From IMG/VR virus record IMGVR_UViG_3300045988_135886: a DNA stretch of 64,000 bases; one strand, 5' to 3'. This document shows positions 3,103 through 17,179 of the stretch, one piece after another (position 1 is the first letter of the stretch; every line of letters starts with the position of its first letter). The position numbers and the translations under genes are program-made. Below the pieces are notes generated by a model, which had not been told where the DNA came from, ran no database searches, and saw nothing but the letters and a program-made list of their open reading frames with translations. Source of the DNA: a virus.

Positions 3103-3523
3103 CCAGGGAATAACTATTGGTTTACAGCAGTTTGTTAATGACTACAAGCCTAAGATGGAAAGAGATGCACAACAGTCAGAAGAAAAATATTATAATGACT
3201 ATTCCTCTTGGGCGGATGGTTATAGACTTTATGATTTAAAAAATATTCATACAATTACAGGCTTTGCTTATAGTCGAAGTGCAGAGCTTAGAGCACGATT
3301 TGATTCAAGCCATATGTCTGGAGGACATGGCATATGGGAACCATTGGAAGGTGATCCAGAAATAGTTTTTTCTTGGGGATTTGAAACAGGTAATCATGGA
3401 TTTCGTAAAACAATAACTCCTATCAGAAATTATTGGGAACAATATTTTCGTGCTAGAAAAATGCATGCCAAAGGGCAAGCAACAAAATTCGTTATCAGCG
3501 GATTACATTCTGTTGGTTTATAA
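3068..3523 (+). CDS. hypothetical protein (possible chaperone extension ORF)
   Basis: Overlaps the previous ORF by 35 nt in the +1 frame. Weak RBS. Directly precedes the TMP. Confidence 0.5.
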   Translation: MGTIPQLRKLIDQGITIGLQQFVNDYKPKMERDAQQSEEKYYNDYSSWADGYRLYDLKNIHTITGFAYSRSAELRARFDSSHMSGGHGIWEPLEGDPEIVFSWGFETGNHGFRKTITPIRNYWEQYFRARKMHAKGQATKFVISGLHSVGL

Positions 3524-3537
3524 AGTGAGGTGAGAAA

Positions 3538-6096
3538 ATGGCTGATTATATAATAAACGTTGGTGTACAAGTCGAGGACAGTGCGCTAAATGCATTAGAA
3601 ACACGAATTAATTCTTTAAAAGAGAAGCACATTAAACTAGGTGTGGAATTAAGTAATACTAAACAGCTAACTAAAAATGCACAGACAGCGGTAAAGACAA
3701 TAAGTAAAGCAACTGCCAAAGCCGCTAAAAATACTCCTGTTATTAAGGGATCTAATCTTGTAGAACAGATGGTAAATCCTGAAGAAGCTTTAAAATCTAT
3801 GGCTAATACAGTCAGTAAGCTGTCAAGGTATCAGGACAAGCTTGATCTAGGAGAAGTAAAACTTTCCGTAAATCAAGGTATTATGGGGGAGCTTGATGGA
3901 CTTTTAGCCAAACTTAATGAAATAAAATCTACAGCTAAAAACATGGGCTCTATTAAGCTTACTGTTGGAGACAATATAAAAACTAAAGACGGTAAAATAG
4001 TTGTTGGAGAAACTACTAGTTCTTCTAATACTGCAAGATCTACAGGCATTACTCTTAGACAAGCTCAAGCTGAAATTAAGAGAAATATGAAGACAATAGG
4101 AACCCTACAGGAACAGTATATAAGTGGGATTATTGATGAAAGTACTTATAAACAGTCAAAGAGAACTATAGGACATAGAAATTCTCAGCTGGCTAGACAG
4201 ATACAAAATCAAGGTACTGCTTCTGATTGGGTTACTTCTGCATCTGACATTCGAGGAGCACAGGCTAAGAATCAAGAAGCATACAAAGCAATGACTCAGA
4301 GTGCTTCAGAATATGACAAAGTTATCACTAATTTGGGTGAGAAACAGAAGACATTCAATAAAATGGCTCAAGTATATAATCCTAACAATGGTAAACCATT
4401 AGATAAAACTCTAGGACAAGGTTATGATGAAAGATTAAAATCTTTCAATGATACATATGAGCAATTAAAAAAATCTCGTGATAGTCTTGCGACTCTTACT
4501 GGAGACGAAAGAGACACTGAGCAAGTACGTTTTGCTGCTCTTCGCTCTGAAGCCAATCGTCAAGCTAGATATCTCGGTAATACTAATCAGTTTTTCTCAC
4601 GTACTCCAAATAGATATAGCCGTTCAGAATATATTGGTACAGATTTAGATCCAGCATCTGATAAGGTCCGTCTTAAGATGGAACAAATGTCAGCAGATCT
4701 GGCAAAAGGAAGCAAATACACAACAGAGTTTAATGCAGCACAAGGTAAAATGTATGCTACTATTGATAGAGGGTCTGGTGTATTTGAAAAATATCAATTA
4801 GCATATAAAAATGGTCCAGGTAATATTGACCAGTCTCTTACTAAAGTTACACAAAGTGTAAAACCTTTATCTAGTTATCTTTCTGAAATGGGACAAAAGT
4901 TCCGTAGTCTTAGCCAGTATCTTGTAAGCAATTTTGGATTCCAAGCATTAACAACGGGTGTCAGATCCGGTGTCGAATCAATAAAAGAATTAGATTCAGC
5001 GATGACTGAACTTAAGAAAACATCAGATGGTACAAAACAAGAATATAGAGACTTTACTACTCAGGCCAGAACTGATGCCAAAGACATTGGTAGTACAACA
5101 ACTCAGATTACTAGTAGTGCTGCTGATTTTTCTCGTCTTGGATATAGCTTAAATGAATCTCAGACTTTAGCTAAAAATACAGGTATTTTAAAAAATGTAT
5201 CAGAATTCGGATCTATAGATGATGCAACAACCGCTATGATTTCCATGATGAAAGCATACGATGTAAAAGTTGATGATTCTATGGATCTCGTTGATAAAAT
5301 GAATCTTATTGGTAACAACTATGCAATTTCTACAGACGGAATTGCCACTGCTTTACAAGATTCAGGTTCAGCATTAGTAGCAGCGGGAAATGACTTCGAT
5401 AAATCAGTTGCTCTCGTTACGGCAGCAAATAGTGTAGTGCAGGATCCATCGAAGGTAGGTGCTGGTCTTAGAACAATTGCATTACGACTTAGAGGCACTT
5501 CTGCTGAAGAATTATCTTCTATGGGTGAAGATACAGAAGGTCTTGTAGAGACCACTTCTAAACTTAATTCAAATATTAAATCTCTTACTGCCGTTAACGG
5601 TAAGGCTGGAGTTTCTATTCTTGATATGAATGGAAACTATAGAGATACTTATGATATTTTAAAAGATATCTCTCAGGTTTGGGATGATATTGGTAAACAA
5701 GATTTGGCAGATGGTCAGAATAGACAGGCTGCTCTGCTTGAAATGATGGCAGGAAAAAATAGAAGTAATATTCTTGCATCCATATTGCAGCATCCTGAAT
5801 TGCTTACAGATGTTTATAATGATTCCGCAAATAATTATCAAAATTCAGCTCAGAACGAGCTTAATACATACCTTGATTCTATCGAAGCAAAAACAACTAA
5901 AATTAAAGAATCTTGGTCACAGTTATGGCAATCAGAAGGTAGTACTAATACTTTTAAAGGATTGCTTGATATTGGCAACGGCGCTGTAGGACTCTTAAAT
6001 GGTTTGGGACTTAATAAATCCTTAGCCGGAGTCGGCGGTATGCTTGTTAGCCATGCTATGAACTGGGGTGGGACAAATTATCAGTTGGTCCTTTAG
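3538..6096 (+). CDS. tape measure protein, N-terminal piece (TP901-type core region)
   Basis: GAGGTGA RBS. Coiled-coil N-terminus. TP901-family TMP core pattern (NYAISTDGIATALQDSGSALVAAGNDFDKSVALVTAANSVVQDPSKVGAGLRTIALRLRG). Ends abruptly after a Gly/hydrophobic segment. Confidence 0.8.
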   Translation: MADYIINVGVQVEDSALNALETRINSLKEKHIKLGVELSNTKQLTKNAQTAVKTISKATAKAAKNTPVIKGSNLVEQMVNPEEALKSMANTVSKLSRYQDKLDLGEVKLSVNQGIMGELDGLLAKLNEIKSTAKNMGSIKLTVGDNIKTKDGKIVVGETTSSSNTARSTGITLRQAQAEIKRNMKTIGTLQEQYISGIIDESTYKQSKRTIGHRNSQLARQIQNQGTASDWVTSASDIRGAQAKNQEAYKAMTQSASEYDKVITNLGEKQKTFNKMAQVYNPNNGKPLDKTLGQGYDERLKSFNDTYEQLKKSRDSLATLTGDERDTEQVRFAALRSEANRQARYLGNTNQFFSRTPNRYSRSEYIGTDLDPASDKVRLKMEQMSADLAKGSKYTTEFNAAQGKMYATIDRGSGVFEKYQLAYKNGPGNIDQSLTKVTQSVKPLSSYLSEMGQKFRSLSQYLVSNFGFQALTTGVRSGVESIKELDSAMTELKKTSDGTKQEYRDFTTQARTDAKDIGSTTTQITSSAADFSRLGYSLNESQTLAKNTGILKNVSEFGSIDDATTAMISMMKAYDVKVDDSMDLVDKMNLIGNNYAISTDGIATALQDSGSALVAAGNDFDKSVALVTAANSVVQDPSKVGAGLRTIALRLRGTSAEELSSMGEDTEGLVETTSKLNSNIKSLTAVNGKAGVSILDMNGNYRDTYDILKDISQVWDDIGKQDLADGQNRQAALLEMMAGKNRSNILASILQHPELLTDVYNDSANNYQNSAQNELNTYLDSIEAKTTKIKESWSQLWQSEGSTNTFKGLLDIGNGAVGLLNGLGLNKSLAGVGGMLVSHAMNWGGTNYQLVL

Positions 6097-6475
6097 AAAA
6101 CGCCCCATGTAACCTGGTGGTGACACGGAACGATCTCATATGAGAAAGGGGTTACTAAGCAAACAACCGAAACTGTCTTTATTCGAAGGAATAGAGAAAT
6201 GCTTTTAATTTAGCATTCAGGGTGAACCGAAGTATATACTACTCCCCTATTACAGCAATGTAATAGGTATAGTAACAACGTATATATATGGGTGATCTGC
6301 AGCGAAGCTTCTCTCTGAGAAGAACGTTCATCGACTATAATGGGAACTTGGTCTCTGGATCAAGAAGGAATAGTCAGGACTGTTAGGCAGCTTGCGCCGA
6401 ATAAATTAAAGGGTAAATACATCTTACTCTCGTAAGCAATCTTACCTTATGTGCAAAGGTGATGTAAGCACAAAT
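6070..6475 (+). ncRNA. group I intron-like ribozyme core
   Basis: GUUCAUCGACUAUAAUGGG (6326-6344) resembles the R element. CAAGAAGGAAUAGUCAGG (6361-6378) resembles the S element. GACUA/UAGUC can form P7. A 7-bp P8 hairpin lies at 6347-6364. Candidate P3 is CCCAU (6104-6108) with AUGGG (6340-6344). GAUCUGCAGC (6294-6303) is Q-like. A 9-bp hairpin capped by a GCAA tetraloop lies at 6246-6267. Candidate P1 pairs GGGGU (6065-6069) with GUCCU (6088-6092). The boundaries are uncertain. Confidence 0.55.
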
Positions 6476-6476
6476 C

Positions 6477-6505
6477 TTTACTTTATTATTCTTCTATGCT
6501 ATATT
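6477..6505 (+). promoter_or_regulatory. candidate sigma-A-type promoter for the 6526 ORF
   Basis: TTTACT, 17-nt spacer, then TGcTATATT (extended -10). Confidence 0.3.
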
Positions 6506-6525
6506 TCACATAGGAGGGTAAAACT

Positions 6526-6990
6526 ATGATAATAAATAATTCTATCAGAACTTATGCACCAATTGCTCCGCCATATTTTGACGGATGCTTATTTATGAAT
6601 GCAACTTATGAAATGCCAGAGGAACTGGCCAATTTGTTTACTAAAGGATTAGAATCCTTAAGCAAACATTTATATGAAAAAAATATTGATCCTACTAAAT
6701 TATTTCCTGTAAGTTTAATATTTACAAAAGATGGCAGTTTTTCTGTCACCGAAAATGAAGCAACCACTTATGGAAGATGTATGTCTTTTTTAGTATACTC
6801 CATGGAACGAATAATTACATCTAACAATCAACACATGCAGCTATTCGCATTTATTGAAGAATTAGTGCATTACTATTTTCAAGAAACAAATGAAACAAAA
6901 GTCAAACTAACTACTTTTTCTGTTGTCCAGAAAATATTCCCAGAAATAACTTTCGAGGAGGTAACATCATGGGGAGTAAATTGGAGTTAA
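6526..6990 (+). CDS. hypothetical protein (island ORF)
   Basis: Strong AGGAGGG RBS 8 nt upstream. 154 aa. No recognised nuclease or other motif. Confidence 0.7.
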   Translation: MIINNSIRTYAPIAPPYFDGCLFMNATYEMPEELANLFTKGLESLSKHLYEKNIDPTKLFPVSLIFTKDGSFSVTENEATTYGRCMSFLVYSMERIITSNNQHMQLFAFIEELVHYYFQETNETKVKLTTFSVVQKIFPEITFEEVTSWGVNWS

Positions 6991-7098
6991 TGTTTATTAG
7001 CAAAGAGAAAAGTCAAATAATTAATTCTCCTATTATAAAAGGTATTACTTGTGATACTTATAAAACAAACTTACAAAATTCATCAAAAGAGCAAAAGA

Positions 7099-7209
7099 CT
7101 ATTCAGTCTCCTGCTCTTTCTTAATATAATACGTACAATCTTCGTTTTCAAAGTACGGACATTCCTCTTCCCTGCACTCTTTATAAAGAGGACATTCTAA
7201 TATTTCCAT
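7099..7209 (-). CDS. small Cys-rich hypothetical protein (36 aa)
   Basis: Not in the ORF track. GGAGG RBS 10 nt upstream. Sequence: MEILECPLYKECREEECPYFENEDCTYYIKKEQETE. Confidence 0.35.
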   Translation of the reverse strand: MEILECPLYKECREEECPYFENEDCTYYIKKEQETE

Positions 7210-7254
7210 AATCTTTAAACCTCCATAATATAGTTTTGAAAGTAGGTGTATTTA

Positions 7255-7425
7255 ATGGATAAAAACATTTTTGATAGATTAGTTCCTAAATATCTTCAAA
7301 AGCTAAGCTCAGACGAAATTACAGATTTACTTATAGAAATCAGTGATATTGGCAGAACAAAATTTATCAGTAATTACCCAAAAGAAATTGCTGATCAACT
7401 CCCAGGATATGACTTATACGAATAA
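7255..7425 (+). CDS. small hypothetical protein (56 aa)
   Basis: Not in the ORF track. AGGTG RBS. Divergent from the 7209(-) ORF. Sequence starts MDKNIFDRLVPKYLQKLSSDEITDLLIEISDIGRTKF. Confidence 0.4.
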   Translation: MDKNIFDRLVPKYLQKLSSDEITDLLIEISDIGRTKFISNYPKEIADQLPGYDLYE

Positions 7426-7500
7426 TCTTTTTCGGTTGTATTCAATGCAGTCGAGATTGTTAACTTTCCTATAGTATTGTGCAGAGTGTTAGTGTACAGA

Positions 7501-7528
7501 AAGGAGAACTGTGGTGGCAGTTCTCCTT
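7501..7528. terminator. bidirectional terminator hairpin
   Basis: aaggagaactg-tggtgg-cagttctcctt: an 11-bp perfect stem between convergent genes, with AT-rich flanks. Confidence 0.65.
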
Positions 7529-7604
7529 CTATTAAATAAAAATTTTAAAAAGAGAAATACATATGACGAAGTAATTAAATGATAAAGTAGAACATTATTA
7601 GCGA

Positions 7605-7790
7605 TTAGTCAACTTTTTTATTCTTGTATTGTCTTTTCATCATTCCGGTGATAAATTTGACTTTCTCATCAGATAATTCTGGATGATTGCAAATTTGATC
7701 AACAGTATGATTTTTCGAGTTGTAATATAGACCAGCTAATATTACAACAAGTAAAAGACTACTAAGAGATATTATTATTCCAGTATTCAT
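7605..7790 (-). CDS. small single-pass membrane protein
   Basis: ATG at 7790 preceded by a GGGGGTGA RBS. TM segment IIISLSSLLLVVILAGLYY. The track's TTG start at 7913 has no RBS. Confidence 0.6.
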   Translation of the reverse strand: MNTGIIISLSSLLLVVILAGLYYNSKNHTVDQICNHPELSDEKVKFITGMMKRQYKNKKVD

Positions 7791-8037
7791 ATTCTTCTTT
7801 TCACCCCCTTCCCTTATAAATTTCTTTATTGGGGAAGTGTATTGCCCAGAACGGGCAGATTCTTCGTCCACATCAACAATACAGAATGTATGCCAACACT
7901 TCTGCATGATCAAAAGAAATGATCAAGTATATTATCGTGCAGCGAGTTATAATGCAGCACCTATAACCATAATATACCTAGTAGTATAATAACAATATTC
8001 GACAACTTTGTATATACAGAACATTAGTTTATTATAA

Positions 8038-8538
8038 TCAAAACTTAGCTCCACACTTACAGCACTGATAAGTCTTACCAAGATCACCTGCTCCAAAAAG
8101 ACCAAACAGACCTATCTTCATTGCTTTTCTTGTTCCAGTGATTTTCTTAAGATTTGTGCTGCCGCAGATTGGACACTTAGGCCCAGTAGAGAATTTCTGA
8201 GCATTCTGTTTGGCATACCACTGGTCTGTGTTTTTGTTTCGTTGCTCTACTCCTTCAGGAGATTCCCAGTATTTTCTTTCTGCAGTGGCTGCTTTGGTAA
8301 CATCAGAGTCTAGCTTGCCATAGAAATATTTCTCTCGGAGCATTTCATCAGATTCTTCTATGCTAGGATAATCACCATTATGTGTTTTTTTATACTCTTC
8401 TGTTACTTCTGCATAAGCTTTAGAAAAGTTTATTGTTGTACCTATAAGATTACCCTTTAAACAACTTGAACATAAATCACCTATAGTATTTGAACAACTC
8501 ACTGCTCCACATTTATTACAAAATAAAAGTTCACTCAT
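8038..8538 (-). CDS. double zinc-ribbon protein
   Basis: ATG at 8538 after an AAGGTGA RBS. N-terminal CNKCG...CSSC and C-terminal CPICG...CCKCG ribbons. Confidence 0.7.
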   Translation of the reverse strand: MSELLFCNKCGAVSCSNTIGDLCSSCLKGNLIGTTINFSKAYAEVTEEYKKTHNGDYPSIEESDEMLREKYFYGKLDSDVTKAATAERKYWESPEGVEQRNKNTDQWYAKQNAQKFSTGPKCPICGSTNLKKITGTRKAMKIGLFGLFGAGDLGKTYQCCKCGAKF

Positions 8539-8566
8539 AATTTTCACCTTTTATATAGTTTTTAAG

Positions 8567-11500
8567 ATGAACTATATTATATCACAGTATCTGGTTTTTG
8601 AAAAGAACGATCAAGGTGGAATTTTACCAGAAACACGTTGGAGTAGAAGAACAAGATTGTACAACGAAGGTCGTGCGGAGGCTTTATCAAATTGGAAAGA
8701 ATATGATAATGACACAAGAGCATTGACCCAGCTTAATAATGCACTTCAGAATAATGGTCAAACTATTACCGATAACGCAGAAAGACAGAAAATTGCTGAT
8801 AAAACTCTAAAAAATGCCAGTGAAAGAGCGAAAGAATATGGTAACCAAATTGTAGCGAATACGAAAACTCTTAGTGACTTTAAGAAAGAGAATGAAGTAG
8901 AGGACCCCAATAAGCAAGTAAAACCTAAATTTACTGATGGATTAAAAAGTTTTGCTTCTTCTGCACTTTCATCAATTGGTAATGCTGTTGTTTCTGCCGG
9001 TACAGCAATGATTGCACAGCAATTAATCTCATGGGGACTTCAAGGTATTGATGCTATTGTTCATTGGAATGATAACATTATTGCTAAAGGAAAAGAAGCA
9101 AAAGAAACAATCCTTGAGCAAAATCAAACTTATAAAGATCAGAAGTCTCAATTAGAAGAGCTCCAAGAACAATATACAAAATACGCTTCAGGTGTCAAAA
9201 TCTCTGGTAATATTATTAAAAATGCCACTCTTTCGGATGAAGATTTTCAAGCGTTTCTCGATACAAGTAATCAAATTGCTAACTTAGCACCTTCTATGAT
9301 TGATGGTTGGGACTCTGAAGGCAATGCTATTCTTAAATTTGGAACGGATACCAAAGAAGCTAATCAGCAAATTTCAGATTATATTCAACTCCAACGTGAC
9401 GTAACACATCTATCCATTAGAGATAATCTACAGGATGAGTATAAGGGTGTAGTTAAAGATGCAGAGAAAACTGGAAAAGAAATTTCTAATAAAAAAGATC
9501 AAAAAAAGGAAGCAGATACTATTACATCTGGATGGACCGCATTAAAAAATGCAACCGAAACAGATGGACCTATTACTTTTACTACAACTGCACCACAAAA
9601 AGAAGTTGAAGAATTACTAGATAAATATAAAGTTACATCGTTAATAACTAGCGATGTAAATGGTGATACTTATACAGTAGATATGTCAGAGCTTTCTGCG
9701 GCAGATAAAAATGCTCTTAAAACGTCTCTTGAATCTAAAGAAGCATTAGCTCAAGGTAATGCCAATTTAATTGAATCTGAAAAACTTGCTCAAGAAGCTG
9801 TACAAGCATCTAAATGGAAAGATTTACTTCCAAGTTTACAAGCATATGTTGAATCATCAAATATGTTTGATAACATGGATTCAGATGTTGCAGAAAGAGC
9901 TAAAAATGGCATTAACACAATGCTATCCAATATTGATATTTCTAAAATGACAGATCAAATAAAAGATGCTGGTGGTATTGATGATTGGATTGATAAGACT
10001 TTAATCGCTCCTATGACATCGGGTTCGAAAGATGTTCAAAAAGCTTGGGCTGACCTTTTTTCATTGGAAGACTCTTATGGTTCCGAAGATTCAAAGATGA
10101 CAGTTGGAGAATGGTCCAAACAGCGAAATGATTATCTTAAAACAATTTCTGAAGGTACTGGTGAAAGTTTTGATAGTCTTGCTAAAAAATTAGGATATAA
10201 AACTGATGAAGGTTGGACTGTTAGAGAACAGATTAACAATGCAGCTGCTCGTCTTTATGGAAAAAACTATGATAGAGATCAAAGAGCGGAAATAGGTAGT
10301 TATTTAAATGGATTGACCAAAGATAATTATGAAATAGCTATTGATTTACTTATTAATGGTGATAAAGCATTTTCTTCTTTAGATGAATTTAAAGAAAAAG
10401 TTAATGAAGCAATAAGCAATGCTAAGAATCAGGCAGATGAAGCTGCTGTTTCTTTAGATTCAATGGAAACGAAAGTATCAACTGCTAAGTCTACTCTTTC
10501 TTCTATGGGAACTATTCTTACAGAGACTACTTCTGCAGGTGGAATTTCTAAAGACAATGTTAAGATCCTTTCTACTGCTTTCAAAGATGTGAAAGATCCT
10601 CGTGGCATTGAGCAAAATGTTAATGATTTATTCACCACTACTTCTGATGGTATCAAACTAAACATAGATGCTTTGAAAACCTTTACGGAATATCAGGCTG
10701 AAGCCACTGATGGAGATTTCGAAAAGGGTATTAAGTTACAGACTAAAGCTATTGCCGAGCAAGCAGAAGAAACAGATAAAGCTTGGAAAGCTATTGCTAA
10801 AGCCGATGACAAGGAAGCAGCTAGAGCAACTTATGACGCAGAAAAAGATAAATTAAAAGATGCTAGAGACGAATATTTATCCTATATGCAATCTCAGTCT
10901 GAATGGCAAGCGACTAAGAAACAGCAACAGGAACTTCTCTCCTATTATTCTCAGTGGCAACGTGCTCAGAGTACGGAGAATGCCGGAGATAAATATAATA
11001 ACATTGTCGCAGGACTAAAGAATGCTAAAGATGCATATGATAAAGGTCTTGTAGGTACAGATGATTTTAAATCATTTGCTGCTCTTATTTCTCCTACAGG
11101 TTCAGATGATAGAGCAAACTTTGCAGAGAATTATGGTAAAGCTGTAAGATACCTCACAGAAGATAAGACAGGTGTTAATAATTTCTTAGCTGATCTTAAA
11201 TCTAAGGGTATGGCATCTTATGATGATGCAAGTAAAAGATGGTCATTTGACATAGATGATATGAGTAAAGCCGCTCGATCAATGGGAATCAGCAAAGAAT
11301 TCATGAGTGCTAACTTCGGTCGTCTTCGTGATTATGGCATTGATAATAACTTTATATCATCTATAGAGGAAGGTATAGACAGAACTCAAGAACTTACTTC
11401 TGCCCTTTCAGATGAACAGAAACGACTCGAAGAACTGAAAAATACAGATAGTACTAACACTACTGCTATTTCTGCTTCTGAGGATAAAGTTAATAAATAT

Positions 11501-14500
11501 AAACAGGATTTAAAAGAAACCTATGATAACATGGAGTCTTATTCAGAAGATGCTGCTCAAAATGCTGTTGATAATTTCAATTCATCTGCCATGGGAGCGC
11601 AAGCCTACGAAGAAGAGATAAAAAGAGTTCAAAAAAATGATCAATTGACAAATGATCAGCGAAATGCAGCTATTAATCAATTAAAAGCTAAACAAGAAGA
11701 GCTAGCTGCTTCTGCCGGTACAACTGTTGAAGCTCTTTTAGGAACAGATGTATCTTCATTAATGGATGGTATCATAACAGATTCTGCTTCTGTTACTACA
11801 GCTCTTGATGGTATCAATAAAGCATATGAAGAACAGAACACAGATGTTACTTCTTTAGTAGACACTCTTGGAAAATATACTTCTGAACAGTTAGAAGGTA
11901 TAGATTTCAATGATGGTAAATGGGACACTGAATTAGGTGATGCAGAAAAAGCTGTTGAATCTTTATGCGAAAAACTCGGTTTAACTAAAGACCAAGCTCG
12001 TTCTGTTATTGAGGCTTTAAAAGAAGCTGGTAAATTAAAAGATTCTGAGAAAAGTAGTGATTCCTCTAAAGAAACTACTAAGGGGTCTTGGGAGAAACCA
12101 CAGACTGCTGAACAGATGGGATTCGGTGATGATCCTGATAGGGCTGCTGAATATACACATTCATTGGAAGCTCTTACTGCTGCCCATAAAGAAAACGATG
12201 CCGCTACTGAAAAGTCATTTGAAACCCTTTCTAAATATAACCGTACACAATTAGAGGGCATCAAATTAAATGATGGTGCTTATAATGTTGAGGGTATGGA
12301 ACAGGCTGAAGATGCCATACAACAGTTAGCAGATAAGACTCAGTTGTCTAAAGATCAGATCCTTACTGCTCTTGAAGGTCTTGGTGTTTTGAAAGTTAAT
12401 GCTCCTACTATGGATGCGACAAAAGGTTTGGAAGATTTAGTTTCTGAGGCTAAAGATGCACAGGACGAATTGTCTGACCTTACTGGTAAAACATACACAT
12501 TTGATTTTGATACTACTGATTTAGATACTGCTCATAAACAGGTAGCTGACCTGCAGGAAGAAGTAAATAAATATAGAGATCGTGATGGTAAATACCATCC
12601 AGAGATTACTGGCGGAGAACAGGTGCAATCAATGTACAAAGCCGCTATTGCTCAAGAACAGAATGCTGAATATAGTTCTTCTGCTATTGGACAGTCTAGC
12701 TTATCATCAGATGTCGTACAAGCTGCTCAAGATTTCATGCAAGCCAAGAATGAAATGGATCAACAAACACAACTCTATCAGAATGGTATGGACAACACCC
12801 TTGATCAGGCTACTCAAGATGCCAATGCAGCTTTTGAAACCTTACAACAGGCTCAGACTGATTCAGGTATCAAATTAGTAGATACAGACAATATTCAAAC
12901 TGCCGAAGATCAGTTATTACAATTATCCAATGAAGATATTGGTGATAAAATCAAAATAGATGTTGATACAACTTCTGTTGATGACGCTCTTGCCGATGTA
13001 CAAGCACTTGCAGCAGACGGAAAAATGGGAAGTATTGACTTAGATTTTAATGTTAATACGATGTCTATTGATGATATAGATTCTAAGATAGAAGAATTGA
13101 CAAATCAACAGAAAGTATTAACTATTCTAGGAGATGTTGAGGGAGCAGATAAAGTACAAGCTCTTATTGATGCCTTGCAGCAAGTACATGACAAACAAGT
13201 TGAAGTTGTTGCACAGACCCAAGGTGCAGATTTAGTAGACCAACTTCAGTCACGAATAGCCGAATTGCAAGATAAGAATGTATCTATTGATGCAATTGTT
13301 CAAGATGATAAAGTTCAAAGTCTTATAAGTGAAATTGCTGCTCTCCCACCAGAAGTCCAAATAGCTATTGGTGTAAATGAAAATAATGTAGGAAATGCAG
13401 AAGCTATCAAAGCTCAGATTGAATCCGATCCTGCAAGTATTACTGTAAATTATGTTAAAGGTGAAGAACCTGAAAAAGCGGATGACATTGAAGGAAAAGC
13501 TAATTTTACTCTTGGAGAACATCCTACAAAAGCTCCAGACATTTCAGGTACAGCTAATTATAGTCTTGGTAGTTATCCTAAAACTGCTCCAACTATTTTT
13601 GGTACTGCTGTTTATACTAAAAAGATTCAAGCTTCTGGCACAATGACATCAGTTGCTCACGCTTCTGGAACAGCTTATAACGTTCTTAATATGAGACCTC
13701 TCTCTTCTGCTCATGCAAAAGGTGATGTAGCACTTAAACATGATGAGCAAGCACTTATTAATGAGGTATGCATCAACGGTCATTCTGAATCCATAGTGCG
13801 TGATGGTGTATGGTCGCTTATTCCTGGTGGTGCTCATATTGAGAATTTGAAAAAAGGTGACATCATCTTTTCAGCTACTCAAACAGAGGATTTATTAAAA
13901 CATGGTGCTACACATGGTCATGCTAGAGCATATGCACAAGGCACTGCTTCCAGTGTAACCCTTGCTCCTGCCTATGCAGACGGTACATCAGAATTAGATG
14001 ATACAATTAAAAAAGTAAGTACTCAAGCTAAAGACTGGATAGAAACTGCTCTTGATCGTTTAGAGAGAATCGTTGAAAAGTATCAAGATATCGCTGAAAG
14101 CGATTATAGTAATTATAAGTCTTCTGAGAAGAATTATGATAAAGCACTTAAAAATCTGAATAAACAATTACAGACACAAAAAGATTCCAGAGCAAAATAC
14201 GTAGCTAAAGCAAATGAAGTTGCTTCTGCTGTTGGTTTATCTGACGAACTGAAAAAGAAAGTCCAGAATGGTACAATCAATATTGAAAGTTTATCCGAAG
14301 ATGATAAGAAACGTGTTGACGCATATCAGGAATGGTATGAAAAAATCTTGGATTGTGACAAAGCGATTCGTGAACTCACTAAGTCACAGAAAGATTTAGC
14401 TAAAGCAAAGGTCGAACGTGTTATTGAAGCTTATGACACCGTCATAGGTAAACGTGAGAATAAAGCTGACTATTACAAAGCTAAACAGGAATTGAGAATC

Positions 14501-17179
14501 TCACAAGGGTATAATCAGAAACCTGGTTCTAAATATGAAAAATACATGAAAAAGGAACTCTATTATACCAATGAACAGAAACGTCTTACTGATAAAGAAA
14601 TAAAAGAATATAAAGGTAGGATGAAAGAATATCTTAAGGTAAATGGACATAAAACTGTCGATCCAGAATACCAAAAGATGAAGAAACAGCTTTATAGTCT
14701 CCAGACAGAGGCTGTTAAGTTAGAAAATGAAGCTGCTGAATTAGTTCAGGCTTTACAAGATAATCGTGAACAGATAAAACAATGGGCTGTTGACCGCTGG
14801 GATCGTGCAGGTTCCAAGCAGGATGCAGTAATTGATTACGCAAAAGCAAATGATAATCCTGAGTATCAGATTAACGAAAAGATTTATCAGGAGCGCATTA
14901 AATCTAATGCGAGACAGATCAATGCACTTCAAAAGCTTCGTGCAGAAAAAGCCGAATACTATGATACTCATTTTTCTTCTATGAATAATGAAGAAGCCCA
15001 GAAATATCTTAATTCTATAGCACAGATTGACGAACAAATTTTAAAAATCGGCAGTGATATAGAAAATCTGAAAAATGAAATCATGGAACTTCGCTGGAAA
15101 CCATTTGATGATGCACAAGATAAACTATCAAATGTTATCACTGAATATCAGACTATGCAAAAACTTCTCGGTGACGCTGAAAGTTTTTACAATGATGATG
15201 GTTCATTTACTACAAATGGATTAACTAACATTTTATTAACTCAAGAATCTATAGATGCGACAAAACAGAAGATTGCTAACTATAGGGAAGGTCTTAATAA
15301 GCTTGAAGAACAATATAAAAATGGTTGTTACAGCTTAGACGAATACAATGAGAAAAGCAAACAACTTCTTGATGGTATTCAACAAGAATCTACTGCTCTT
15401 TCTGAACTGAAACAGAATATGCTTGATATGTATGAGACTCAAATTAAGAAAGAGAATGATTTACTTCAGGAAAATATTGATAAGCGTAAAGACGCTCTTT
15501 CTGCTAAAGAGAAATATTACGATTATGACAAAACTTTAAAAAAGAAGTCTAAAGATATTAATACTCTTAAATCCCAGATAGCTGCCCTTGAAGGAACCAG
15601 TAATGCTGCCGCCAAAGCTCGTCTTGAGAAATTACGTGCGGAACTTGCAGATGCCGAAGATGATATGGCAGATACCATGCATCAACACGAAGTCGATATG
15701 AAAAATACCGGCTATGAGAATTTCTCTAATGAAGCGAATAAAGCTCTTGATAATACACTTGATGCAGTAAAGAAAAATTCTTCGTTTCAGGAAGCTATTA
15801 TTAATGGAATGCTTACCAATGTAACCACTAATTATGATAACACATATAAACATTTACATACTGTGATGGATCAGTATGGTGTTAAGGTGTCTGGCACATT
15901 TGATACTATGATAGGTAAGTCTGCTGATTTCAATACAAGTTTAATTCAACAGATAAAAGCATTAGAAACCATTTCTAATATGAAAGTTACTCTTCCATAC
16001 GGAACAAGCAATGGACAAGGTGGTTCTACAACTGGTAATAATACATATACCGGTGCTGAGAATGGTATTCACAATACATTTAATAGCAATAAAGACTCCA
16101 CTGGTGCTGGAAATGAAACTCCAGGTACAGTTAATAACAAGAAATACAGTTTAAAACTAAACGCTACTGATATTTATTTAACTTATGACCATATTAAACA
16201 GCAGCTTAAAGCAACATGGTCACCAAGCAAACCGGAACACTCTGATATTGAGTGGAAAAGTTCTGATGAATCTATTGCAAAAGTTTCTTCTGATGGTACA
16301 GTTCGTGGTGTGTCTTCAGGTCTTAATAAGAACGGTTTAATGGCGCGTGATGAGTCTAAAACAAGAAAATGTATCATTACTGCTATTGGCGGTGGTGGTC
16401 TTGCTAAAGCTACTTGTACCGTTCATGTAATGCCAAATGCTCATTACGAAGCAATTAAATCCTATGCAGCTAATGCAGGGATTGATGTTACTTCTGGAGA
16501 TAACTTAAGAGCCGCCATGCAATATGCATATCAAAATGGGGCTAATCATAGCTACCAGTCTGATGTCGCAGTTGAAGGATTCAAAAAGGCATATCTGAAG
16601 GATTGGACAAGCTCTCTACCTAATCGTCCAGATGGAGCAACTGATATTCCATCTGGTGTTAGTCAGTTAGTAGGTTACTTCAATTCCAAAGGTAAAAAAG
16701 TCGGACCAAAAGAAATGCAACAGCTTGCAGATATTCTTGGAATTAGTACTCCAGGTGTTAAAAAATATGATTCATGGGGTTCTGCTTTAAAAAATCAGAT
16801 ACTTCAAAAGTATAAATCATATGGTTTTGCTACTGGTGGAATAATAAATAAGCTAATACCTGCTGATATGAGTACTCTTTTAGGTAAAGCTATTATTAGT
16901 AATGGAGATCAGGGATTCATTGGTGCAAAAGTTGGCGAATCAGTAATGACCGAGGAATTTACTCGTCTGCTCAAACCTTCTATTGCTGCAATGAATGACT
17001 TTACCAATATGTTTAACCCGGTTACTCCTACTGCCACAAATAATGATTATACTATCAACAACGAAGTGAACATTAATGTAGCAAATATGAGTAATGATTT
17101 AGACATCCAAGATGTCGCAAACAAAGTTTCTACAATTATTAATAAAAATATGACTAGAGACTGGAGAAAGCTTAGATGA
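8567..17179 (+). CDS. tape measure protein, C-terminal piece (giant coiled-coil protein with an Ig-like domain)
   Basis: 2870-aa ORF. Gly/hydrophobic segment near the N-terminus (SSALSSIGNAVVSAGTAMIAQQLISWG). Kilobases of E/K/Q-rich coiled coil. Repeated A(H/Y)AxGT motifs (AHASGT, AHAKGD, AYAQGT, AYADGT, GFATGG) typical of TMP C-termini. Big_2-like Ig domain around 16140-16430. No SD before the ATG at 8567. Confidence 0.7.
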   Translation: MNYIISQYLVFEKNDQGGILPETRWSRRTRLYNEGRAEALSNWKEYDNDTRALTQLNNALQNNGQTITDNAERQKIADKTLKNASERAKEYGNQIVANTKTLSDFKKENEVEDPNKQVKPKFTDGLKSFASSALSSIGNAVVSAGTAMIAQQLISWGLQGIDAIVHWNDNIIAKGKEAKETILEQNQTYKDQKSQLEELQEQYTKYASGVKISGNIIKNATLSDEDFQAFLDTSNQIANLAPSMIDGWDSEGNAILKFGTDTKEANQQISDYIQLQRDVTHLSIRDNLQDEYKGVVKDAEKTGKEISNKKDQKKEADTITSGWTALKNATETDGPITFTTTAPQKEVEELLDKYKVTSLITSDVNGDTYTVDMSELSAADKNALKTSLESKEALAQGNANLIESEKLAQEAVQASKWKDLLPSLQAYVESSNMFDNMDSDVAERAKNGINTMLSNIDISKMTDQIKDAGGIDDWIDKTLIAPMTSGSKDVQKAWADLFSLEDSYGSEDSKMTVGEWSKQRNDYLKTISEGTGESFDSLAKKLGYKTDEGWTVREQINNAAARLYGKNYDRDQRAEIGSYLNGLTKDNYEIAIDLLINGDKAFSSLDEFKEKVNEAISNAKNQADEAAVSLDSMETKVSTAKSTLSSMGTILTETTSAGGISKDNVKILSTAFKDVKDPRGIEQNVNDLFTTTSDGIKLNIDALKTFTEYQAEATDGDFEKGIKLQTKAIAEQAEETDKAWKAIAKADDKEAARATYDAEKDKLKDARDEYLSYMQSQSEWQATKKQQQELLSYYSQWQRAQSTENAGDKYNNIVAGLKNAKDAYDKGLVGTDDFKSFAALISPTGSDDRANFAENYGKAVRYLTEDKTGVNNFLADLKSKGMASYDDASKRWSFDIDDMSKAARSMGISKEFMSANFGRLRDYGIDNNFISSIEEGIDRTQELTSALSDEQKRLEELKNTDSTNTTAISASEDKVNKYKQDLKETYDNMESYSEDAAQNAVDNFNSSAMGAQAYEEEIKRVQKNDQLTNDQRNAAINQLKAKQEELAASAGTTVEALLGTDVSSLMDGIITDSASVTTALDGINKAYEEQNTDVTSLVDTLGKYTSEQLEGIDFNDGKWDTELGDAEKAVESLCEKLGLTKDQARSVIEALKEAGKLKDSEKSSDSSKETTKGSWEKPQTAEQMGFGDDPDRAAEYTHSLEALTAAHKENDAATEKSFETLSKYNRTQLEGIKLNDGAYNVEGMEQAEDAIQQLADKTQLSKDQILTALEGLGVLKVNAPTMDATKGLEDLVSEAKDAQDELSDLTGKTYTFDFDTTDLDTAHKQVADLQEEVNKYRDRDGKYHPEITGGEQVQSMYKAAIAQEQNAEYSSSAIGQSSLSSDVVQAAQDFMQAKNEMDQQTQLYQNGMDNTLDQATQDANAAFETLQQAQTDSGIKLVDTDNIQTAEDQLLQLSNEDIGDKIKIDVDTTSVDDALADVQALAADGKMGSIDLDFNVNTMSIDDIDSKIEELTNQQKVLTILGDVEGADKVQALIDALQQVHDKQVEVVAQTQGADLVDQLQSRIAELQDKNVSIDAIVQDDKVQSLISEIAALPPEVQIAIGVNENNVGNAEAIKAQIESDPASITVNYVKGEEPEKADDIEGKANFTLGEHPTKAPDISGTANYSLGSYPKTAPTIFGTAVYTKKIQASGTMTSVAHASGTAYNVLNMRPLSSAHAKGDVALKHDEQALINEVCINGHSESIVRDGVWSLIPGGAHIENLKKGDIIFSATQTEDLLKHGATHGHARAYAQGTASSVTLAPAYADGTSELDDTIKKVSTQAKDWIETALDRLERIVEKYQDIAESDYSNYKSSEKNYDKALKNLNKQLQTQKDSRAKYVAKANEVASAVGLSDELKKKVQNGTINIESLSEDDKKRVDAYQEWYEKILDCDKAIRELTKSQKDLAKAKVERVIEAYDTVIGKRENKADYYKAKQELRISQGYNQKPGSKYEKYMKKELYYTNEQKRLTDKEIKEYKGRMKEYLKVNGHKTVDPEYQKMKKQLYSLQTEAVKLENEAAELVQALQDNREQIKQWAVDRWDRAGSKQDAVIDYAKANDNPEYQINEKIYQERIKSNARQINALQKLRAEKAEYYDTHFSSMNNEEAQKYLNSIAQIDEQILKIGSDIENLKNEIMELRWKPFDDAQDKLSNVITEYQTMQKLLGDAESFYNDDGSFTTNGLTNILLTQESIDATKQKIANYREGLNKLEEQYKNGCYSLDEYNEKSKQLLDGIQQESTALSELKQNMLDMYETQIKKENDLLQENIDKRKDALSAKEKYYDYDKTLKKKSKDINTLKSQIAALEGTSNAAAKARLEKLRAELADAEDDMADTMHQHEVDMKNTGYENFSNEANKALDNTLDAVKKNSSFQEAIINGMLTNVTTNYDNTYKHLHTVMDQYGVKVSGTFDTMIGKSADFNTSLIQQIKALETISNMKVTLPYGTSNGQGGSTTGNNTYTGAENGIHNTFNSNKDSTGAGNETPGTVNNKKYSLKLNATDIYLTYDHIKQQLKATWSPSKPEHSDIEWKSSDESIAKVSSDGTVRGVSSGLNKNGLMARDESKTRKCIITAIGGGGLAKATCTVHVMPNAHYEAIKSYAANAGIDVTSGDNLRAAMQYAYQNGANHSYQSDVAVEGFKKAYLKDWTSSLPNRPDGATDIPSGVSQLVGYFNSKGKKVGPKEMQQLADILGISTPGVKKYDSWGSALKNQILQKYKSYGFATGGIINKLIPADMSTLLGKAIISNGDQGFIGAKVGESVMTEEFTRLLKPSIAAMNDFTNMFNPVTPTATNNDYTINNEVNINVANMSNDLDIQDVANKVSTIINKNMTRDWRKLR
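8576..8604 (-). promoter_or_regulatory. sigma-A-type promoter driving the 8538(-) gene
   Basis: On the minus strand: TTTTCA, 17-nt spacer, then TGaTATAAT (perfect extended -10). It lies inside the first codons of the 8567 ORF. Confidence 0.55.

Follow-up and report, generated by a model that had tools for sequence, protein, structure and literature searches.

The locus studied here raises the question of whether a phage tape-measure gene found in two pieces encodes two proteins or one. In the 64,000-nucleotide (nt) viral sequence deposited in IMG/VR as IMGVR_UViG_3300045988_135886 (hereafter, the window), a tape-measure-like open reading frame (ORF1; 3538-6096, 852 amino acids, aa) is separated by a non-coding gap of 429 nt from the ORF that begins at 6526, and a second, giant ORF (ORF2) follows further downstream. 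An earlier sequence-only reading had pointed to a group I intron-like ribozyme at the end of ORF1. Our comparative analysis suggests that positions 6070-8593 are probably a single group I intron, 2,524 nt long, lying inside one giant gene for the tape-measure protein (TMP). The parts of this putative gene are as follows:

3538-6069, plus strand: exon 1, 844 codons ending in ...AAC TGG GGT, with PF10145 and PHROG tape-measure matches
6070-6474, plus strand: predicted ribozyme core, drawn from alignment A4 (see below), pair counts and the blastn homology of 6266-6338
8594-17179, plus strand: exon 2, 2,861 codons beginning with GTT TTT GAA (VFEKNDQGG...)

In the scenario that we propose, the late TMP transcript would fold the first ~405 nucleotides of the intron into a ribozyme, whose guide (6096-6107, GAAAAC-GCCCCA) would pair with the end of exon 1 (UGGGGU) to form P1, with a wobble between U6069 and G6102. 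Free guanosine bound in P7 would then attack after U6069. The distant 3′ end of the intron, just before G8593, would be drawn in by the 7-nt strand GGACUGU (6377-83) in P9.0; G8593 would take the place of the guanosine as omega-G, and the GUUUUU of exon 2 would pair with the guide (P10). Ligation would produce ...AAC UGG GGU|GUU UUU GAA..., encoding a TMP of 3,705 aa (844 + 2,861 codons), and from unspliced RNA nothing but the 852-aa product of ORF1 would be made, with its intron-encoded end GTNYQLVL. That the RNA is spliced, that this happens in cis and that it is self-catalysed are three points that we infer from sequence.

The ribozyme core and the 5′ splice site

Relatives of the locus came from a first pattern scan (L004, L011, L025, L028, L058), from contigs carrying ORF1 homologs with 55-90% aa identity (L123-L126, L153-L158) and from a protein-profile scan of IMG/VR (L127-L152). 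In all of them, an ORF1 of 836-854 aa is followed by the RNA, then by variable small genes and, where the contig reaches that far, by a giant ORF of >2,400 aa. The contigs are up to 264 kb long, and since neighbouring genes match YomU_Tube, YomW and DUF1064, the surroundings appear to be an SPbeta-like tail module. The pattern GCAGCGAAGC...AACGTTCANCGACTA recurs in >120 IMG/VR contigs; among the 185,579 species genomes of GTDB, neither the core 19-mer nor the TMP was matched.

Twelve distinct homologous sequences compose alignment A4, which supports 20 nested helices and one loop-loop pairing. The resulting structure contains 115 pairs, with 97.7% of cells paired across the 12 sequences, and in 41 of these pairs both sides have changed. 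Shuffles gave on average 15.9 such pairs and reached 41 in 0 of 500 cases, and control structures slid by 1-3 columns gave 3-7. The conserved RNA block ends at ~6474-6480. Its 5′ boundary is set by the following elements:

6064-6070 x 6101-6107 (CGCCCCA), plus strand: P1, 7 pairs, all of them formed in each of the 12 sequences
6071-74 x 6088-91, plus strand: P1-extension hairpin, with a 12-nt loop AAAUUAUCAGUU (6075-6086) identical in 12 of 12 lineages
6094-6096, plus strand: in-frame TAG ending ORF1, at intron nucleotides 25-27

Four of the seven P1 pairs show compensatory changes (6064/6107 is UA, CG or GC; 6065/6106 is GC or UA; 6068/6103 and 6070/6101 are each GC or AU), and the U6069-G6102 wobble is kept in all 12 sequences. 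The guide tracks the exon codons TGG/TTG/CTG/GTG/CGG and GGT/GAT. Such covariation around an invariant U-G wobble bears out the 5′ splice site that the sequence-only reading had placed after U6069, at a codon boundary, together with its view that the TMP stop TAG lies inside the intron. The P1 partner proposed at the same time, GUCCU (6088-92) pairing with GGGGU, had to be given up: no compensatory change accompanies it, and it breaks in three sequences, where the exon varies. As a guide, this segment is better replaced by the one above, GUCC pairing instead with the intron's own GGAC (6071-74) and extending P1. From the splice site to the TAG, eight codons are kept as DNA in all relatives, with the tail ...NYQLVL* (variants NYQFIL and NYQLILS), and the ~30 residues ahead of these conserved codons are highly variable. 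Group I introns of the Bacillus cereus group typically have an in-frame stop among their first 27 nucleotides (PMC2504315).

Further downstream, a direct sequence check located every motif that had been listed for the core at its reported place:

6246-6267, plus strand: 9-bp helix with a GCAA cap
6294-6303, plus strand: Q-like GATCTGCAGC
6308-6322, plus strand: P6-like hairpin CTTCTC-TCT-GAGAAG
6326-6344, plus strand: R-like element GTTCATCGACTATAATGGG
6333-37 and 6371-75, plus strand: P7 strands GACTA/TAGTC
6347-53 x 6358-64, plus strand: 7-bp hairpin (P8), followed by the 6-nt AAGGAA
6361-6378, plus strand: S-like element CAAGAAGGAATAGTCAGG

Alignment A4 sets these motifs into a longer series of predicted helices:

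6109-14 x 6150-55, plus strand: P2, three-way, with a GNRA hairpin (6115-27) and a hairpin at 6134-45
6176-97, plus strand: hairpin A, from A4
6199-6216, plus strand: hairpin B, three compensatory pairs
6217-21 x 6296-6301, plus strand: P4, with no variation in P4 itself
6226-93, plus strand: P5 and its extensions, the latter covarying
6302-27, plus strand: P6, which covaries
6331-37 x 6371-76, plus strand: P7 with C6332 bulged, canonical in sequence and order, all 6 pairs invariant
6347-64, plus strand: P8, 7 pairs, 4 of them compensatory
6365-70, plus strand: J8/7, 6 nt
6386-98, plus strand: P9, 3 pairs, 2 of them compensatory
6411-29, 6432-45 and 6450-72, plus strand: three further hairpins

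Compensatory changes give strong support to P1 (as re-placed), P2, P8 and P9; P7 is uninformative by covariation because all six of its pairs are invariant. The long GCAA-capped extension of P5 is missing from the L125 clade. A pairing between J2/3 (UAAGC, 6156-6160) and the P9 loop (GCUUG/A, 6390-6394) is present in 92% of cells, with one compensatory change (L156), and is broken in the same clade.

Homology gives a second line of evidence. When 5600-9200 was compared by blastn with 50,697 phage records, the sole type of match joined 6266-6338 to group I introns that lie in DNA polymerase genes of two Pseudomonas jumbo phages, PhiPA3 (85% identity over 73 nt, E 5e-11) and HPP-Temi (96% over 50 nt, E 1e-12). 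The matched phage DNA is unannotated and lies between the halves of split DNA-polymerase genes; Rfam recognizes the two loci as Intron_gpI with 71.7 and 59.2 bits, respectively. The segment in common spans P4′-P6-J6/7-P7, and its homology across P4′-P6-J6/7 indicates that a P4-P6 domain with Q/R-type sequences is present.

Covariance models had been suggested as a check, and the outcome was divided. No Rfam family reached its gathering score across the 64 kb, including Intron_gpI (RF00028), ROOL, GOLLD and group II, and on the 3 kb of 5800-8800 there was no match at E<=10 to RF00028 or to the latter three, so that none of these alternative RNAs was matched. On a shorter piece of 471 nt, cmscan gave a weak RF00028 alignment over 6169-6397, covering P4-P9 (15.2 bits, E 0.2), and the shorter homolog L125 gave 23.8 bits (E 5e-4). 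Formally, the check is passed by half, with sub-threshold alignments to the expected family. RF00028 is reported to be incomplete for phage introns (PMC11878797). Since blastn homology coexists with such weak RF00028 scores, we regard the core as homologous to group I introns yet departing from the curated model. The 429-nt gap region also folds slightly better than its shuffles (z = -2.6), which has little meaning alone. Overall, homology to RF00028-positive introns and covariation of the helices uphold the suggested group I intron-type core, and the structured RNA at the end of ORF1 is very probably a group I-type ribozyme.

The distant 3′ splice site and the two exons

Where, then, would such an intron end? 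Codon-level conservation starts at GTT 8594, with third-position changes and a constant VF(E/A)KN(D/E)xGGILP. The preceding codon is CTG, TTG, TCG or CCG, with only the G constant. This G is in frame with exon 1 in 12 of 12 lineages; every lineage reads NNG|RYUUUY at this point, all introns would end in Y-Y-G, and in L125 the aligned G is the sole in-frame G available. Three strands would bring it to the core:

6377-6383, plus strand: 5′ strand of P9.0, GGACUGU, directly 3′ of P7 and invariant in 12 of 12
8584-8593, plus strand: 3′ strand of P9.0, ACAG[UA]UCU, with the candidate omega-G (G8593)
6096-6101, plus strand: P10 guide strand GAAAAC, directly 5′ of the P1 strand; its partner is exon 2 at 8594-8599 (GUUUUU/C)

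P9.0 pairs GGACUGU with the last 7-9 nucleotides of the predicted intron, and 6-7 pairs can be drawn in every lineage: L011, L152 and L155 have seven contiguous ones, and in the window a 2-nt bulge divides them into 4 + 3. P10 has 5-6 of its 6 pairs in each of the 11 lineages for which both ends are available. Its first pair is G-C in the window, A-U in L156 (one compensatory change) and G-U in L153 and L155, and the ligated exons would pair with the guide across 12 contiguous positions. By a naive energy of P9.0 plus P10, the site ranks 1st-4th among 146-493 candidate G's per lineage, the usual competitor being the adjacent G. Such evidence makes G8593 the probable 3′ splice site, with exon 2 starting at G8594. 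Of the two ends considered in the sequence-only reading, the comparative data support the distant one, which was expected within 8566-8660, gave a ~2.5-kb element and rejoined the TMP pieces. The intron would measure from 1,065 nt (L155) and 1,085 nt (L153) to 3,378 nt (L123).

ORF2 has no conserved start codon. The ATG at 8567 is ATA, ATT or TTT in L123, L011, L152 and L157, and in the window it lacks a visible Shine-Dalgarno sequence. In the stretch examined upstream of exon 2, L123, L152, L157, L125, L153, L158 and L156 contain no in-frame ATG, GTG or TTG; in L011/L127 and L155, the only in-frame start candidate is the TTG that carries the proposed omega-G, and the reading frame of L125 is shifted upstream of the 3′ site. 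Gene callers place the start of ORF2 at four different positions. Removal of the predicted intron restores the frame in all lineages. It is also important to note that homologs of exon 1 (53-99% identity) are 836-854 aa long, mostly 849-854 aa where full length.

An uninterrupted homolog was proposed earlier as a way to map the insertion, and one was found in L149 (IMGVR_UViG_2700989228_000042, 3287-14809), which encodes a single TMP ORF of at least 3,840 aa, running off the locus. Exon 1 plus exon 2 is colinear with this ORF in three high-scoring segment pairs, the first of which crosses the junction; the overall colinearity stands, and the insertion point itself is weakly aligned. No intron-less allele of the 6070-8593 site was found in IMG/VR, JGI metagenomes or the protein set down to ~55% aa identity of the exons. 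The predicted junction reads CATGCTATGAACTGGGGT|GTTTTTGAAAAGAACGATCAAG as a 40-mer, and the corresponding peptide would be ...HAMNWGVFEKNDQGGILPETR.

The cargo and the weighing of alternatives

Between the core and the 3′ splice site lies a cargo of 0.7-3 kb, in which the constant part is antisense and the variable part consists of small ORFs on either strand. In the window, it contains:

6526-6990, plus strand: variable ORF, 154 aa, PHROG 33355, with a strong Shine-Dalgarno sequence
7085-7120, no strand assigned: 16-bp terminator-like hairpin between convergent cargo genes, reported on the minus strand
7099-7209, minus strand: gene of a Cys-rich peptide of 36 aa (MEILECPLYKECREEECPYFENEDC...), its Shine-Dalgarno sequence being GGAGG
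7605-7913, minus strand: variable ORF, 102 aa, one hydrophobic segment, in only some lineages
8038-8538, minus strand: gene for a 166-aa protein with one CxxC...CxxC zinc ribbon at each terminus
8576-8604, minus strand: predicted extended -10 promoter, TTTTCA-17-TGATATAAT, overlapping both the 3′ splice site and the beginning of the exon 2 coding sequence

The 6526 ORF is not part of the conserved element because it is absent from L028, L152, L157, L156, L125 and L153. A minus-strand gene of 32-36 aa occupies the same place in nine loci (L123, L124, L125/L126, L153, L155-L158), with 74-96% nucleotide identity. Nine of the loci extend as far as ORF2, and in eight of these another minus-strand gene, of 165-182 aa, directly adjoins it; the exception, L158, has at this place a DUF2513 gene of 157 aa together with two small ORFs on the plus strand. 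The zinc-ribbon family counts ~140 homologs, none of them named; the protein has no match in Pfam, NCBIfam, PADLOC or PDB sequences, and Foldseek found no PDB fold matching its AF2 model (pLDDT 84). The promoter is the best promoter-like site in 6000-8750, with 10 of 12 matches and a TG extension. A TATATTATATCA box (8573-8584), or a variant of it with one mismatch, occurs in 8 of 10 lineages, including the frame-different L125, and is more diverged in L153 and L155; we considered this box as an RNA structure, and it is better explained by the extended -10 promoter of the antisense genes. The 166-aa and 36-aa genes make up a conserved putative antisense operon with its own predicted promoter.

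No homing endonuclease domain (LAGLIDADG, GIY-YIG, HNH, His-Cys box, PD-(D/E)xK or VSR/EDxHD) was found in any cargo ORF, nor was an IS200/IS605-type transposase (Pfam, PHROGs, NCBIfam). The "IStron-like" label once attached to the element holds for its layout, core first and cargo after, and fails for the insertion sequence (IS) transposase, of which the cargo ORFs include none.

Several observations weigh against the view of a single spliced intron. Some of them concern P3. A scan for partners of 6336-6348 in all 12 sequences found no canonical P3, the RF00028 alignment deletes both P3 strands, and the covarying hairpin at 6199-6216 occupies the place expected for the P3 5′ strand. The P3 proposed in the sequence-only reading (CCCAU at 6104-08 with AUGGG) has no compensatory change to support it and fails at the very positions where the exon varies; since CCCAU is part of the guide sequence, it is not P3. 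The strand that follows P7, UAUAAUGGGAA, is invariant, and its sole universal partner is UUUAUU (6178-83); this pairing (6178-83 x 6339-44) has three G-U pairs and no informative variation, and it excludes the covarying hairpin A. The RF00028 scores of 15-24 bits in the window and L125 are far under the 50-bit gathering score. At the other end, wherever G is the first nucleotide of exon 2, the energy favours this following G just as much as the proposed omega-G, and only the frame decides; the L149 alignment has a 29-aa gap at the weakly aligned junction. Fused-protein and junction-peptide searches of a 5.8-billion protein set returned no protein spanning both exons, and the ligated-exon DNA pattern gave 0 matches in IMG/VR and 62 chance matches in JGI metagenomes, none TMP-like. 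Finally, transcription must cross 0.7-3 kb with a promoter and genes of antisense orientation and, in the window, the strong 7085-7120 hairpin, which on the plus strand could impede read-through to exon 2.

A more daring version of the intron scenario would see a functional ribozyme with a rewired core in an intron that acts as a regulated switch and not as a passive parasite, or else the zinc-ribbon protein as a new mobility or maturase factor. We put this forward tentatively and consider it rather unlikely. On the side of the core, the loop of hairpin B (UUAAUUU, 6205-11) is invariant and complementary over 7-8 nt to 6402-6409, where AAAUUAA (6403-09), also invariant, stands downstream of P9. 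The two form a candidate loop-strand kissing interaction, on which covariation is uninformative because nothing varies. With a rewired core, the hairpin at 6199-6216 may replace the P3 strand from between P7 and P8, its loop kissing AAAUUAA. As for a switch, the antisense operon, with its promoter lying across the 3′ splice site, may set the ratio of the unspliced 852-aa to the spliced 3,705-aa product. As a separate observation, the 12-nt loop of the P1 extension contains AAAUUA and could compete for the hairpin loop at 6206-6211.

Of the competing explanations, the one that survives best, though we think it unlikely, accepts the ribozyme and leaves the TMP pieces unjoined. The RNA would perform only the first step or hydrolysis at U6069, or would have another role, and ORF1 and ORF2 would be separate proteins, the latter translated from ATG 8567 or from some internal or non-canonical start codon. 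The window does have this ATG, gene callers find TTG/ATG starts further in, and no spliced product is present in the databases searched; the antisense transcription signals, the strong hairpin in the cargo and the lack of a canonical P3 also fit. However, ATG 8567 is neither conserved nor preceded by a visible Shine-Dalgarno sequence in the window, and codon conservation starts exactly at the predicted start of exon 2, upstream of the alternative starts. Moreover, an invariant omega-G, P9.0 and a P10 on a guide contiguous with P1 would be purposeless without exon ligation.

The obstacles to read-through also invite a trans-splicing scenario, in which exon 1 with the core, and the last ~30-50 nucleotides of the intron with exon 2, are separate transcripts joined via P9.0 and P10. 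The 7085-7120 hairpin and the antisense operon could stop read-through, and promoter-like sites with 9 of 12 matches exist on the plus strand at 8530-8559 and 8550-8578, although these are no better than chance, the region having as many promoter-like matches as its shuffles (14 vs 13.1). The contact between the two RNAs would amount to no more than 7 + 6 base pairs, and short versions of the element (1,065-1,197 nt in L155, L153 and L156) lack extra plus-strand genes. To our knowledge, there is no bacterial or phage precedent, and we regard this scenario as very improbable.

We are just as sceptical of the idea that the element is no intron at all, that is, some other conserved structured RNA, such as a regulatory 3′ untranslated region or a leader, with a P4-P7-like segment borrowed by recombination. 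It would account for the mere ~70 nt of blastn similarity to known introns, the sub-threshold RF00028 scores and the missing P3. It does not account for a guide that covaries with upstream codons around an invariant U-G, which is the signature of 5′ splice-site recognition by group I introns, nor for P7 with its bulged nucleotide, J8/7, P8 and P9.0 in canonical order and a 3′ site with omega-G and P10. Finally, a short intron ending near the core, for instance at G6513, and fusing the TMP to the 6526 ORF can practically be dismissed: the 444-nt intron of the sequence-only reading would be in frame, but conservation stops at ~6474-6480, there is no G between 6469 and 6497, the segment 6475-7106 with the 6526 ORF is missing or different in L028 and most lineages, and neither P9.0 nor P10 can be drawn for this site.

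A second intron and comparison with known systems

The same gene supplies a control for the method. In L147, an insertion of 1,776 nt (7562-9337) interrupts ORF1 at an earlier point; it is found in the lineage of L004/L011/L025/L058 and also in L146-L151. It carries a Q element TTGCAGCGAAG, an R element ACGTTCAACGACTAGA, an S-like element ACATAGTCT and, after the core, a 377-aa helix-turn-helix ORF. With the insertion removed, an 852-aa ORF1 results that is colinear with P0112, which is intron-less at that site; the empty site in the window is at ~5700 (...GCA GGA|AAA AAT CGT...). The guide AUUUUU-GCCUG pairs with AAAAAU of exon 2 and CAGGU of exon 1, with U-G at the site, which is the same arrangement as that predicted for the 6070-8593 intron. 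By these features, the insertion is a second group I intron in the TMP gene. Even so verified by its empty site, it gives no RF00028 match (E<=1). Because standard covariance-model screens miss both this intron and its neighbour, counts of introns in phage metagenomes would be underestimates.

In general layout, the intron of the window resembles the nrdD (sunY) intron of phage T4, where the core lies at the 5′ end, the cargo precedes the 3′ splice site and the choice of that site depends on P9.0 and P10. The T4 intron belongs to subgroup IA2, with P7.1 and P7.2, and its cargo is one sense-strand endonuclease ORF (I-TevII). Here, in contrast, a short strand and then P8 directly follow P7, and the conserved cargo is antisense. 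The introns of PhiPA3 and HPP-Temi share the same Q and R elements with ours and 85-96% identity over P4′-P6-J6/7-P7. However, they have a canonical P3, long insertions between P7 and P3′ (the position of P7.1/P7.2) and 59-72 bits with RF00028, that of HPP-Temi carries a sense HNH endonuclease, and outside of the ~70 nt both are unrelated to the present intron.

The closest parallel in host gene is offered by the TMP introns in prophages of the Bacillus cereus group (Tourasse and Kolsto 2008; PMC2504315), which are likewise inserted in frame, share the stop within the first 27 nucleotides and have P1 and P10 adapted to the local exon. Several introns per gene occur there, as does a second one here in L147. 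At least TMP-IVS3b and the tail-tube intron of that group have no complete homing endonuclease gene (PMC2504315), and, according to the Figure 5 legend of the same paper, the TMP introns are drawn with standard secondary structures. The present intron has RF00028 scores of 15-24 bits, no identifiable P3, a length of 1.1-3.4 kb and an antisense operon. IStrons, which combine a group I ribozyme with IS200/IS605 elements, e.g., in Clostridioides difficile, have the same layout of a ribozyme followed by a kilobase-sized cargo, with PMC10690162 as background; the present cargo yielded no TnpA, TnpB or IS signature.

Since group I introns in phage TMP genes are known, the element is not new in kind. 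What is new is the variant: it is sub-threshold for the curated model, has no recognisable P3, carries an antisense operon in the place of a homing endonuclease and has its predicted 3′ site 0.7-3 kb from the core. For annotation, this means that in a clade of large gut phages the TMP is called as two unrelated ORFs ("minor tail protein" and a giant hypothetical protein), while the true product is probably one protein of ~3,700 aa, which sets the expected tail length. An evidently selected ribozyme that lacks a recognisable P3 and has its 3′ site kilobases off would be a test case for the dispensability of the canonical core, and, given the conserved antisense gene pair that stands in for a homing endonuclease, one may ask how the intron stays fixed.

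The history of the locus appears to be mosaic. Compared with L123, nucleotide identity is 73% in exon 1, 99% in the core, 98% in the 102-aa ORF, 76% in the zinc-ribbon gene and 77% in exon 2. We do not ascribe the 99% identity of the L123 core to homing, the locus being a mosaic of segments with differing identities. Sharp segment-wise differences in identity are also seen over 5470-9200 against L123, L124 and L011. Recombination breakpoints appear to lie at or near the intron core, and the conserved core itself may serve as a recombination point.

Finally, we would like to mention an annotation gap in PhiPA3. In its RefSeq record (NC_028999.1, ~74590-74895; L001 2368-2673), no feature covers the RF00028-positive intron (71.7 bits), which is flanked by a DNA polymerase CDS and a "hypothetical protein" resembling the second exon of the polymerase.

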